A DNA stretch of 64,000 nucleotides from the sequence record PV340561; one strand, given 5' to 3'. This document shows, one piece after another, positions 26,775-30,173 of this stretch. The stretch is from Escherichia phage PhiR41_1. The notes under the pieces are model-generated. The model had not been told where the DNA came from and made no database searches. It worked only from the letters and a program-made list of their open reading frames with translations. Position 1 is the stretch's first letter. Each line of letters opens with the position of its first letter. A program made the translations under genes and the position numbers.

Positions 26775-26800
26775 AGGTGGTGCATTGCACCACCTTTTTA
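26775..26800 (+). terminator. rho-independent terminator
   Basis: AGGTGGTGCATTGCACCACCT hairpin plus TTTTTA; sits at the left junction with the host-type block. Confidence 0.6.
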
Positions 26801-27901
26801 TCACACTGCGCGGAATGCGATTTCGCCAGGTATTACTTCACCTTGCCAATACATTTGGGCAGCAACGCGATCTGCAAGGTCACGATAAATAGCCGTAAAT
26901 TCGCTATCTGGACGACTAATAACGGTTGGTGTTCCGTTATCCAGATCTTCACGAAGAGAGATATGAAGTGGCATTTGGCCTAACAACTGCGTGTTGTATT
27001 TCTCGGCCAGTTTCTGTGCGCCACCGGTGCCAAAAATTGGCTCGTGATGACCGCAGTTACTGCAAATATGCACACTCATGTTTTCGACGATACCCAGTAC
27101 CGGCACTTCGACTTTTTCGAACATCACAATGCCTTTCTTCGCATCGATCAGCGCGATATCTTGCGGCGTAGTTACCACAACAGCACCAGTTACAGGAATG
27201 TTCTGCGCCAGCGTCAGCTGAATATCACCAGTACCCGGCGGCATATCGAGAACGAGATAGTCCAGATCAGGCCATAGAGTTTCCTGCAACATCTGCATTA
27301 ACGCCTTGCTCGCCATCGGACCACGCCACACCATCGCATTGTCGTCAGTTACCAGATAACCAATTGAATTGGTTGCCAGTCCATGAGACATAATCGGTGC
27401 CATGTGGGTACCGTCCGGTGAGGTTGGACGTTGGTTTTCCGCGCCAAGCATGGTTGGAATTGATGGCCCGTAGATATCGGCATCCAAAATACCAACTTTC
27501 GCACCTTCAGCAGCCAACGCCAGTGCCAGGTTTACCGCCGTGGAGGATTTACCAACGCCGCCCTTGCCTGAGCTGACGGCGATAATGTTCTTAACGCCAT
27601 TAATGCCTGGTTGGTTTTTGACGCGCTTAAGCGTGGCAATGTTGTACGACAGCTTCCAGTCGATAGCCTTTGCGCCAGTGATACGGAGCAGATCACCACT
27701 ACATTGCTCTTTCAGGTCTTCAAAAGGCTTATTCCACACGAAAGGCATGATTAGTTCGACATGCAGTGTGTCATCCATCAACGCAACATGGTGTAACGCT
27801 TTAAGCGTAGTCAGGTTGTGTTTCAGGGTTGGGTGCTGAAAATTAGCCAGCGTACCGGCTACCATTGCTCTCAGGGCATCCGGCGATTTGGACTCGCTCA
27901 T
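26801..27901 (-). CDS. apbC: Mrp/ApbC iron-sulfur cluster carrier ATPase (host-type)
   Basis: 366 aa; deviant Walker A SGKGGVGKSS, CxxC (CSNCGHHEP); near-colinear with enterobacterial Mrp as recalled; divergent from metG as in the chromosome. Confidence 0.93.
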   Translation of the reverse strand: MSESKSPDALRAMVAGTLANFQHPTLKHNLTTLKALHHVALMDDTLHVELIMPFVWNKPFEDLKEQCSGDLLRITGAKAIDWKLSYNIATLKRVKNQPGINGVKNIIAVSSGKGGVGKSSTAVNLALALAAEGAKVGILDADIYGPSIPTMLGAENQRPTSPDGTHMAPIMSHGLATNSIGYLVTDDNAMVWRGPMASKALMQMLQETLWPDLDYLVLDMPPGTGDIQLTLAQNIPVTGAVVVTTPQDIALIDAKKGIVMFEKVEVPVLGIVENMSVHICSNCGHHEPIFGTGGAQKLAEKYNTQLLGQMPLHISLREDLDNGTPTVISRPDSEFTAIYRDLADRVAAQMYWQGEVIPGEIAFRAV

Positions 27902-28058
27902 CCCGTCTCCTTTATTTTAATTTGCGCAATTGTCGCCTTGTAGTGTACTCCAGCTACGGCATTTAATCATTTATGAGAAATGCTGTTATCACATGGCAGA
28001 CATAAGGCCATTTTGTTACTATCAAGCCCCTTTTCACTACAAAGAAGTAATGCCTACT

Positions 28059-30092
28059 ATGACCCAAGTCGCGAAGAAAATTCTGGTGACGTGCGCACTG
28101 CCGTACGCTAACGGCTCAATCCACCTCGGCCATATGCTGGAGCACATCCAGGCTGATGTCTGGGTCCGTTACCAGCGAATGCGCGGCCACGAGGTCAACT
28201 TCATCTGTGCCGACGATGCCCACGGCACACCGATCATGCTGAAAGCACAGCAGCTTGGTATCACACCGGAACAGATGATTGGCGAAATGAGTCAGGAACA
28301 CCAGACTGATTTTGCAGGCTTTAACATCAGCTATGACAACTATCACTCGACGCACAGCGAAGAGAACCGTCAGTTGTCCGAGCTTATTTATACTCGCCTG
28401 AAAGAGAACGGTTTTATTAAAAACCGCACCATCTCTCAGTTATACGACCCGGAAAAAGGCATGTTCCTGCCGGACCGTTTTGTAAAAGGCACCTGCCCTA
28501 AATGTAAAGCGCCAGATCAATACGGCGATAACTGTGAAGTCTGCGGCGCGACTTACAGCTCGACTGAACTGATCGAGCCGAAATCGGTAGTTTCTGGTGC
28601 TACGCCGGTAATGCGTGATTCCGAACACTTCTTCTTTGATCTGCCTTCTTTCAGCGAAATGCTGCAGGCATGGACCCGCAGCGGTGCGTTGCAGGAGCAG
28701 GTGGCAAATAAAATGCAGGAGTGGTTTGAATCTGGCCTGCAACAGTGGGATATCTCCCGCGACGCCCCTTATTTCGGTTTTGAAATTCCGAACGCGCCGG
28801 GCAAATATTTCTACGTCTGGCTGGACGCGCCGATTGGCTACATGGGTTCCTTCAAGAATCTGTGCGACAAACGCGGCGACACCTCCAGCTTCGATGAATA
28901 CTGGAAGAAAGACTCCACCGCCGAGCTGTACCACTTCATCGGTAAAGATATCGTTTACTTCCACAGCCTGTTCTGGCCTGCCATGCTGGAAGGCAGCAAC
29001 TTCCGCAAGCCGACCAACCTGTTTGTTCATGGCTATGTGACGGTGAACGGTGCGAAGATGTCCAAGTCTCGCGGCACGTTCATTAAAGCCAGCACTTGGC
29101 TGAATCATTTTGACGCCGACAGCCTGCGCTACTACTACACCGCCAAACTGTCTTCGCGCATTGATGATATCGATCTCAACCTGGAAGATTTCGTTCAGCG
29201 CGTGAATGCCGATATCGTGAACAAAGTGGTTAACCTGGCGTCCCGTAACGCTGGCTTTATCAATAAGCGTTTTGACGGTGTGCTGGCAAGCGAGCTGGCT
29301 GACCCGCAGTTGTACAAAACCTTCACTGATGCCGCTGAAGTGATTGGTGAAGCGTGGGAAAGCCGCGAATTTGGTAAAGCTATCCGTGAAATAATGGCAC
29401 TGGCTGACCTGGCTAACCGCTATGTCGATGAACAGGCTCCGTGGGTGGTGGCGAAACAGGAAGGCCGCGATGCCGACCTGCAGGCAATTTGCTCGATGGG
29501 CATCAACCTGTTCCGCGTGCTGATGACTTACCTGAAACCGGTACTGCCGAAACTGACCGAGCGCGCAGAAGCATTCCTCAATACAGAACTGACCTGGGAT
29601 GGTATCCAGCAACCGCTGTTGGGCCATAAAGTGAATCCATTCAAGGCTCTGTATAACCGCATCGATATGAAACAGGTTGAAGCACTCGTGGAAGCATCAA
29701 AAGAGGAAGTAAAAGCCGCTGCCGCGCCAGTAACTGGCCCACTGGCAGATGATCCGATTCAGGAAACCATCACCTTTGACGACTTCGCCAAAGTTGACCT
29801 GCGCGTGGCGCTGATCGAAAACGCAGAGTTTGTTGAAGGTTCTGACAAACTGCTGCGCCTGACGCTGGATCTCGGCGGTGAAAAACGCAATGTCTTCTCC
29901 GGCATTCGTTCTGCTTACCCGGATCCGCAAGCACTAATTGGTCGTCACACCATTATGGTGGCTAACCTGGCTCCGCGTAAAATGCGTTTCGGTATCTCAG
30001 AAGGCATGGTGATGGCTGCTGGTCCTGGTGGGAAAGATATCTTCCTGTTAAGCCCGGATGCTGGTGCTAAACCTGGCCACCAGGTTAAGTAA
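28059..30092 (+). CDS. metG: methionine--tRNA ligase (host-type)
   Basis: 677 aa from [26 protein letters not shown] (HIGH motif), KMSKS present, C-terminal tRNA-binding domain; recognised as enterobacterial MetG. Confidence 0.96.
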
Positions 30093-30114
30093 TTAAGCAA
30101 CCTCTCTTCGCAAT

Positions 30115-30138
30115 GCCCGGCAACACGCCGGGCATTTT
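30115..30138 (+). terminator. rho-independent terminator (metG)
   Basis: GCCCGGCAACACGCCGGGC hairpin followed by ATTTT. Confidence 0.7.
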
Positions 30139-30173
30139 CATATAGACACAATCCCTTCTGATTTACACAGTAC

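Follow-up and report, generated by a model that had tools for sequence, protein, structure and literature searches.

Second copies of metG, the gene for methionyl-tRNA synthetase (MetRS), have been reported from phage-plasmids of the SSU5/pHCM2 supergroup, a group treated in PMC3999498, PMC7969092 and bioRxiv 10.1101/2025.09.12.675607. In Shigella sonnei, multidrug resistance has reportedly been linked to a phage-plasmid that carries metG in multiple and highly variable copies, and expression of the phage-plasmid metG is reported to give rise to a subpopulation predisposed to gain third-generation cephalosporin resistance (Tam et al., as related in PMC12452169). Elements like pWPMR2, which belongs to clade K, are reported in 18% of the S. 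sonnei genomes screened, where they are concentrated in an extensively drug-resistant lineage, and also in the E. coli clonal complexes CC131, CC23 and CC73 (bioRxiv 10.1101/2025.09.12.675607). In E. coli, persistence goes up when MetRS is reduced or altered (PMC11004401). When an essential enzyme of translation is present in a mobile second copy that alters antibiotic survival, this is clinically relevant. Here we describe an apbC-metG block in a 64,000-nucleotide (nt) stretch of Escherichia phage PhiR41_1 (PV340561); this whole stretch is called the window and all coordinates are positions within it. The gene apbC, also called mrp, encodes an iron-sulphur (Fe-S) cluster carrier ATPase. We classify the carrier as an SSU5-supergroup phage-plasmid of the pECOH89/pWPMR2/Cyrano-like Escherichia/Shigella clade, and like the SSU5-group elements of Tam et al. 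it holds an extra metG. Our results suggest, with a probability that we put at about 0.8, that the block is a genuine and ancient capture of a host-derived two-gene cassette that is insulated from its surroundings, stable in its clade and kept by selection, and whose metG was converted after the capture. For specialists the interest lies in the sharply discordant histories of the two genes, in a metG that the host chromosome appears to overwrite in patches, in an apbC conserved even more strictly than metG, and in a slot bounded by a recurrent operator-like palindrome in which sibling elements hold other host-type genes (der, ydfZ).

The initial annotation, made from the letters alone, had recognised apbC and metG in their native divergent arrangement, and this was confirmed: both are full-length open reading frames (ORFs; Table 1) that score above the equivalog cut-offs of their NCBIfam profiles. 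It had also stated that exactly two genes are carried, which holds as well, since homology to the K-12 mrp-metG locus (window 26805-30093, 89.1% over 3,298 nt) ends at both stop codons. The predicted MetRS scores 1016.6 bits against NF001100 (cut-off 587), with residues 4-677 corresponding to profile positions 3-676 of 676. Its motifs are intact (HLGH at 22, KMSKS at 333, zinc knuckles CPKC at 146 and CEVC at 159), and the C-terminal tRNA-binding and dimerisation domain is matched by TIGR00399 metG_C_term at 162.8 bits (cut-off 116.65). On these features it is predicted to be a conventional full-length class Ia MetRS capable of aminoacylating tRNA-Met and tRNA-fMet. The ApbC scores 759.3 bits against NF008669 (cut-off 348), residues 2-366 corresponding to profile positions 5-369 of 369, with an intact deviant Walker A motif (GKGGVGKS at 112) and CxxC cluster-binding motif (CSNC at 280); its N-terminus is three residues shorter than that of the chromosomal E. 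coli protein. It is predicted to be a full ApbC/Mrp carrier that binds and transfers Fe-S clusters. A role as a plasmid partition ATPase of the ParA/MinD type, which the MinD annotation in Cyrano would imply, was rejected because the match to the ApbC equivalog is complete and the CxxC motif is present. The chromosomal E. coli locus (b2113-b2114) has the same genes in the same divergent orientation and shares -10-like boxes with the element. The initial annotation had expected a chromosomal match at near-100% identity. This was not found: identity to E. coli chromosomes is ~82% for apbC and 93-96% for metG. Two genes that adjoin the locus in the chromosome, yehE and DUF4132/yehF, are absent from the block, as is the chromosomal metG downstream region.

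The two genes differ sharply in their relationship to the chromosome. The element apbC has a nucleotide identity of 82-83% and its product an amino acid identity of 94.5% to E. coli, and it is about equally distant from E. albertii, Citrobacter and Salmonella. Its uncorrected proportion of synonymous differences (pS) to chromosomes is 0.62-0.71, which is saturated, with a nonsynonymous distance (dN) of about 0.035-0.04 and a ratio of nonsynonymous to synonymous rates (omega) of 0.02-0.03. GC content at third codon positions (GC3) is 0.51, as against 0.62-0.67 in chromosomes, and is shifted towards the phage value. In a tree of codon positions 1 and 2 the element copies form a long branch sister to Escherichia, and the longest exact run that apbC shares with chromosomes is 41 nt. 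The element metG is 93-96% identical to that of E. coli chromosomes (96.2-96.9% for the best matches) and its product about 99% identical, with a synonymous distance (dS) of 0.18-0.33, an omega of 0.01-0.03 and a GC3 of 0.61, as in E. coli. The ratio of the apbC dS to the metG dS is 1.6-1.8 between chromosomes and about 5 between element and chromosome; a single capture without later exchange does not fit.

The distribution of alleles within metG indicates the form this exchange may have taken. We compared nine phage-plasmid copies with six E. coli chromosomes at 48 diagnostic sites, at which the six chromosomes are fixed and at least four of the nine copies differ from them. Each phage-plasmid metG has exact runs of up to 382 nt in common with E. 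coli chromosomes, and the chromosomal-type alleles form contiguous tracts that are placed differently in each copy: at gene positions 1266-1869 and 39-150 in the window, 531-1848 in pECOH89 and 390-828 in an S. sonnei plasmid. The longest runs in these three copies exceed those in all 10,000 permutations (P<1e-4 each). All copies are of the phage-plasmid type at the first diagnostic site and over the last ~70 nt of the gene. The window metG has 3 differences to the E. albertii plasmid pEA11_2 and 42-48 to the chromosomes at gene positions 161-1000, while at positions 1001-1900 it has 16 differences to the SCU-115 chromosome and 70 to pEA11_2. This pattern suggests that metG has been gene-converted in patches, repeatedly and independently, by the metG of the host chromosome, the direction of transfer being read from the distribution of the alleles. 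The ends of the gene would be protected because homology stops there. Discordant gene histories and patch-wise conversion of metG are possibly new, depending on the content of Tam et al.; the 'highly variable copies' of metG reported for S. sonnei, as PMC12452169 gives them, agree with the mosaicism found here.

We also put forward, as a tentative idea that we hold to be somewhat more apt to fail than to stand, that the element metG is a standing recombination partner of the host metG. Conversion would keep the mobile copy host-like, would yield many chimeric MetRS alleles and may move alleles in both directions between strains and species, and apbC, too diverged to recombine, would be left as a 'fossil' that dates the capture before or outside the crown of Escherichia. 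If true, a translation gene that is essential and tied to antibiotic survival would have in the element both a shuttle and a generator of diversity, and if the idea is also absent from Tam et al., it would provide a new evolutionary mechanism behind the 'highly variable' copies. Integration of the element at metG by a single crossover was considered and rejected, because none of 5,426 genomes has a chromosome with two metG copies. One record stands apart: in the 'chromosome' of E. coli BHUCD01 (NZ_CM183442.1, 2192570-2197803), which has K-12 length and coordinates, metG is almost wholly of the phage-plasmid type and apbC consists of long blocks alternating between K-12 and phage-plasmid alleles. 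The cassette of the element may really have replaced the chromosomal genes here; more likely, plasmid and chromosomal reads were mixed in a reference-guided consensus.

The intergenic region, which the initial annotation had given as the two genes' own, is divergent and has a host-type layout, the longer one of Citrobacter and Salmonella; it is not the E. coli region, with which the 157 nt align only over ~47 nt beside metG. The alignment with Citrobacter extends over 135 nt (77%), and a segment of ~25 nt is kept as in Citrobacter and Salmonella and is absent in E. coli and E. albertii, so that the element lacks the Escherichia-specific deletion. Two -10-like boxes, invariant in the element as in all species compared, are TACTAT, which lies upstream of metG, and a box on the apbC strand, GTAGTNTAC. 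Pairwise diversity among the nine phage-plasmid copies is lowest here, at 0.015, with 0.031 in apbC and 0.045 in metG. Promoters may lie in this region, and a promoter and operator role is likely for the palindromic motif described below. The metG terminator, which had been taken as part of the host segment, turned out otherwise. For the hairpin that follows metG, no homologue was detected after the metG of K-12 or at 80 other enterobacterial metG loci. The hairpin occurs once in the window and lies inside a slot that is variable relative to the sibling element pTB212; on this comparison it is not host-derived. On the other side, the UmuD'-like gene and terminator that had been noted to the left of the block were borne out, by a HumD profile match and by a hairpin with a T-run. 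This second hairpin also occurs once in the window, shows no homology to the chromosomal mrp-metG loci compared, and separates the HumD unit from the convergent 3' end of apbC. We propose a moron-like layout, in which the cassette is insulated and fills a gap that separates phage operons: the HumD unit would be closed by its terminator, the cassette would have its own conserved divergent promoter region and metG its own hairpin, and the next phage operon would begin at a promoter flanked by two palindromic operator-like motif copies. Like morons and auxiliary metabolic genes, this is a host-derived cassette between phage units with a putative regulatory region of its own and predicted terminators on both sides, dispensable for the family; unlike the usual morons its cargo is a core housekeeping pair of which one member is essential and one still seems to recombine with its chromosomal homologue.

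Table 1. Features of the apbC-metG block and its immediate borders (positions in the window)
Feature	Position	Strand	Evidence
Left AAACAANTTGTTTTCT copy, upstream of HumD; left exchange junction in a sibling element	26254..26269	+	motif count; pZ1323HEC0016-2 collinearity
HumD/UmuD'-like S24 peptidase gene, last of the left flank	26374..26763	+	NCBIfam NF051876 HumD, 215 bits; PHROG 811 UmuD-like
HumD-unit terminator (predicted), hairpin and T-run	26775..26799	+	terminator scan; -15.3 kcal/mol, z -4.0
apbC (mrp), Fe-S cluster carrier ATPase, 366 amino acids (predicted)	26801..27901	-	NCBIfam NF008669
Divergent intergenic region, putative promoter region, 157 nt	27902..28058	.	Citrobacter/Salmonella-type long layout; alignment
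metG, methionyl-tRNA synthetase, 677 amino acids (predicted), ATG at 28059	28059..30092	+	NCBIfam NF001100
Short second chromosomal-type tract, gene positions 39-150	28097-28208	+	diagnostic sites
Minimal E. coli-type putative conversion tract in metG (possible extent 28887-30022)	29324..29927	+	19 consecutive diagnostic sites chromosomal, P<1e-4
Probable metG terminator, GC-rich hairpin then ATTTTC	30112..30139	+	-19.1 kcal/mol, z -4.6
Two AAACAANTTGTTTTCT copies (30174-30192, 30225-30243) around a GATAAT box; right slot boundary	30174..30243	+	motif scan; pTB212

A metG on phage-plasmids is already known from the literature, and the block from RefSeq annotation and from hundreds of public records; the cargo had been called unusual, and among phages at large it is, without being new. 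With a query of 4 kb that takes in both junctions (window 26500-30500), the query is covered at 100% and at 95-97% identity in plasmids of ~110 kb in 218 of 5,426 complete E. coli genomes (4%). It is also covered at 100% in 194 PLSDB plasmids, mostly non-mobilizable circles of ~110 kb and including pECOH89, from E. coli, E. albertii, E. fergusonii and Shigella, with the PLSDB typing rep_cluster_488/IncFIB, and in three phage records, Cyrano (OV696614.1) and CMS-2020a among them. Six Shigella plasmid records carry the block; the two examined, S. sonnei LR213459.1 and NZ_CP045933.1 (about 108 kb), have it at 95.4% with the same flanks. HumD, apbC, metG and a DUF5983-type ORF are collinear at 95-96% identity in pECOH89 (NC_023916.1), AnCo1-3, Cyrano and CMS-2020a. 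The window allele matches no searched record exactly, the best match being pEA11_2 at 97.4%. The initial annotation had left two explanations standing, a genuine capture and a chimeric assembly in which chromosomal mrp-metG reads were joined into a phage or plasmid contig. The GC content of the block (0.50-0.525, flanks 0.43-0.46) and the precise end of chromosomal homology at the gene boundaries could be taken to favour the latter. Yet the recurrence of both junctions in the 218 genomes, the 194 plasmids and the three phage records, which include hundreds of independent closed assemblies, refutes a chimera, and we give it practically no weight; apbC is 18% and metG 4-6% diverged from every E. 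coli chromosome, so the block is not built of host chromosomal reads, and the chromosomal neighbours are missing. We also regard a recent capture from the chromosome of the current host, by illegitimate recombination or transposition in E. coli, as very improbable. It would explain why metG is closest to E. coli chromosomes and shares identical runs with them, but this similarity is limited to internal tracts that differ between copies, while divergence is deep in apbC, in the intergenic region and at either end of metG. No insertion sequence or repeat flanks the block, and the phage-plasmid copies differ among themselves by a dS of up to 0.29-0.33; the block is therefore older than the diversification of the clade. 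The result clarifies that the block is neither an assembly error nor, in all likelihood, a fresh capture. Under the preferred reading of an ancient capture, the donor would be an enteric lineage outside the crown of Escherichia, or its stem; both direction and timing are matters that we infer. After the capture apbC would have drifted to synonymous saturation with its base composition moving towards the phage value, and the metG of the resident chromosome would have overwritten the mobile metG in patches, repeatedly and independently, by homologous recombination, which would keep it both E. coli-like and highly variable between elements.

The question of why the cassette is kept is separate from that of its origin. 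Both genes are under strong purifying selection (omega 0.01-0.03) and all nine copies compared are full-length. The window and five of the other copies encode one and the same ApbC protein despite a dS among these six of up to 0.16; in the remaining three dN is 0.001-0.004. The dS to the window is up to 0.27, and it reaches 0.29 across all nine. This selection, together with the least variable intergenic region, argues against the two genes being neutral passengers that hitch-hike without a function for the element, a view in whose favour it can be said that no function has been shown for the element apbC and that sibling elements thrive with other cargo; we think it hardly credible. Since both genes are intact, MetRS and ApbC are each present in a further version in a carrier cell, and the expression of these two would be set by the element through plasmid copy number and its own promoter. 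Of the 677 residues of the element MetRS only about 5-10 are not those of the host enzyme, and most of these changes are conservative. The differing positions include T112, A151, T275, T276, I442 and T554, many of them ancestral enteric states; the first five of these occur in other enterics, the HIGH, KMSKS and zinc motifs are free of differences, and the converted copies encode the E. coli residues. We therefore regard the enzyme as conventional, and any effect of the copy is more likely to come through dosage or regulation than through altered catalysis. A role in antibiotic tolerance is the best-supported function, its phenotype coming from the literature, and a benefit to the lysogen in antibiotic survival through metG would then be the reason for keeping the cassette; that this is the primary selective reason has, in our judgement, about even odds. 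Much less weight falls on a role in the lytic cycle, in which MetRS would charge initiator and elongator tRNA-Met and ApbC would deliver Fe-S clusters, for example to phage-encoded enzymes of nucleotide metabolism, so raising virion output, with tolerance as a by-product. Some large phages do encode aminoacyl-tRNA synthetases (for example Microcystis phage MaAM05 and two uncultured phages of ~635 kb), the element is rich in nucleotide metabolism, including ribonucleotide reductase and thymidylate synthase, and an apbC conserved at least as strictly as metG is not explained by tolerance centred on metG. But the cassette lies outside the motif-controlled operons, and its insulation by terminators and its putative host-type divergent promoter region would fit an expression that is constitutive in the lysogen. 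No tRNA genes are present in the window, and SSU5, pHCM2 and the Klebsiella relatives are without the block, so that the family can complete its lytic cycle without it. A second synthetase on a plasmid is one of the known routes to resistance, as in MupA/IleRS2 and in the AgnB2 leucyl-tRNA synthetase (LeuRS) of pAgK84. By analogy a second MetRS might shield the lysogen or phage from an inhibitor, toxin or defence system directed at MetRS, and NCBIfam does have exception models for MupA and MupB. We consider this improbable. The likeness to the MupA/MupB isoleucyl-tRNA synthetase (IleRS) plasmids, an extra synthetase on a mobile replicon linked to antimicrobial survival, does not extend to a divergent inhibitor-insensitive enzyme: the MupA/MupB models match weakly, at 33-34 bits against a cut-off of 1900, and with a near-host MetRS, whose converted copies have host alleles, a resistant-variant mechanism is unlikely and only a dosage effect would remain.

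Several points weigh against the reading that we prefer, that of an ancient capture kept by selection and later converted. The mosaicism rests on nine phage-plasmid copies and six chromosomes and the direction of transfer on the distribution of alleles only, and the low omega of metG was partly imported with the converted tracts. Part of the synonymous distance of apbC may reflect its compositional shift and not time. No donor was found in a scan of genome contigs, the listed matches of which included no representative of E. coli, E. fergusonii or Salmonella, and a search with the ApbC protein found nothing above 95% outside the element's own cluster, in a database clustered at 90% identity that could hide a closer chromosomal ApbC. 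A sigma-70 consensus scan finds no promoter in the intergenic region, so the promoters there are inferred. The tolerance phenotype is second-hand, and pWPMR2 may be of another lineage than LR213459.1 and NZ_CP045933.1. The known persistence mutants reduce MetRS function, which leaves the route from an extra near-wild-type copy to tolerance unexplained, and a story of metG only does not explain the tight conservation of apbC. With regard to the donor, three chromosomal contexts recovered in the ApbC protein search are ordinary yeh-apbC-metG loci, and a '99%' match to E. albertii in the contig scan proved to be a best-segment figure for a chromosomal locus with 87.5% nucleotide identity.

The flanks of the block, which sits between HumD and an early operon of the phage, are phage DNA that shares a palindromic motif, as had been reported. 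The left flank encodes an SbcC-like protein/nuclease, ribonucleotide reductase, thymidylate synthase, a methyltransferase and HumD, the right flank a helicase, terminase, portal and tape-measure protein; the terminase large subunit, portal and tape-measure protein lie at 46386-59844 on the same molecule as apbC and metG. The motif, AAACAANTTGTTTTCT, has 23 copies in the window where 0.43 are expected, in intergenic positions before small operons (for example 15896, 16625, 21171, 26254, 30177, 30225, 32452, 32936, 33841, 34606, 45673 and 45698), and is probably the operator of a regulator encoded by the element. Two copies with the GATAAT box between them stand directly upstream of the next phage ORF (ribosome-binding site GGAG, ATG at 30255) and may form an operator-controlled promoter. 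Copies of AAACAANTTGTTTTCT coincide with module-exchange junctions between sibling elements. In pTB212 a DUF4145 gene takes the place of the block, and its junctions lie after 26763 and at 30177. In pZ1323HEC0016-2 (NZ_CP148383.1) collinearity breaks at 26271 and resumes at 26792, and HumD is replaced by der (engA), which adjoins apbC. This der is full-length (4271-5743 of the compared stretch), shares 91.7% identity with each chromosomal der of E. coli, and among the 5,426 genomes is found on one plasmid only; it encodes a ribosome-biogenesis GTPase, so that here too an essential host gene related to translation was captured, and in the same place. The right flank, but not the block, is matched at about 70% in SSU5-like plasmids of Klebsiella, Salmonella and Enterobacter. 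From these comparisons the block is best described as clade-specific cargo in a recombination-prone slot between operons.

Other host-like genes are seen in the neighbourhood of the slot. The pHCM2-like S. Typhi plasmid pTy004_01 (NZ_KX833209.1) has a host-type ydfZ, for a putative selenium delivery protein, on the opposite strand in a comparable region between early phage genes (5337-5540 of the compared stretch). In the E. fergusonii plasmid NZ_CP079892.1 a DNA polymerase III theta-subunit homologue stands just upstream of HumD (1-75 of the compared stretch) and is another host-like replication/repair gene of the neighbourhood. A second variable slot lies next door: one ORF follows the block on its right, and directly beyond this ORF pECOH89 contains an additional segment of 1.4 kb (12054-13427 of the compared stretch), with a hypothetical gene of 409 amino acids, that is lacking at the corresponding window position 30553-30565. 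Within the cassette itself, the E. coli plasmid NZ_CP075739.1 (86682-91272) has a transposase between or within apbC and metG that splits the match and adds about 1.3 kb, a rare natural disruption.

Apparent captures of mrp and metG in other phage records did not hold up. The two genes are adjacent by tblastn in 'Pseudomonas phage Y5' and 'Acinetobacter phage MD-2021a'; the Y5 record, which is marked UNVERIFIED and in which genes for a glycosyltransferase, an SDR dehydrogenase and an SsuA-type binding protein make up the flanks, was read as host DNA. Fragments of host DNA are also the likely content of the many small 'phage' records of Listeria, Staphylococcus and Salmonella in which metG is found. 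Downstream of the block, a stretch of ~850 bp (30690-31540) has few ORFs and a strongly A+C-rich plus strand (AT skew 0.29, GC skew -0.11). No Rfam family was matched in the window from 26000 to 33000, which includes this stretch. It contains four copies of a repeat of 28-29 nt centred on GCCATTACCCAA as well as other short direct repeats, and is kept at about 68-73% in hundreds of SSU5-like Klebsiella, Salmonella and Enterobacter plasmids without an annotated gene; it could represent iterons, an origin or a long non-coding RNA.

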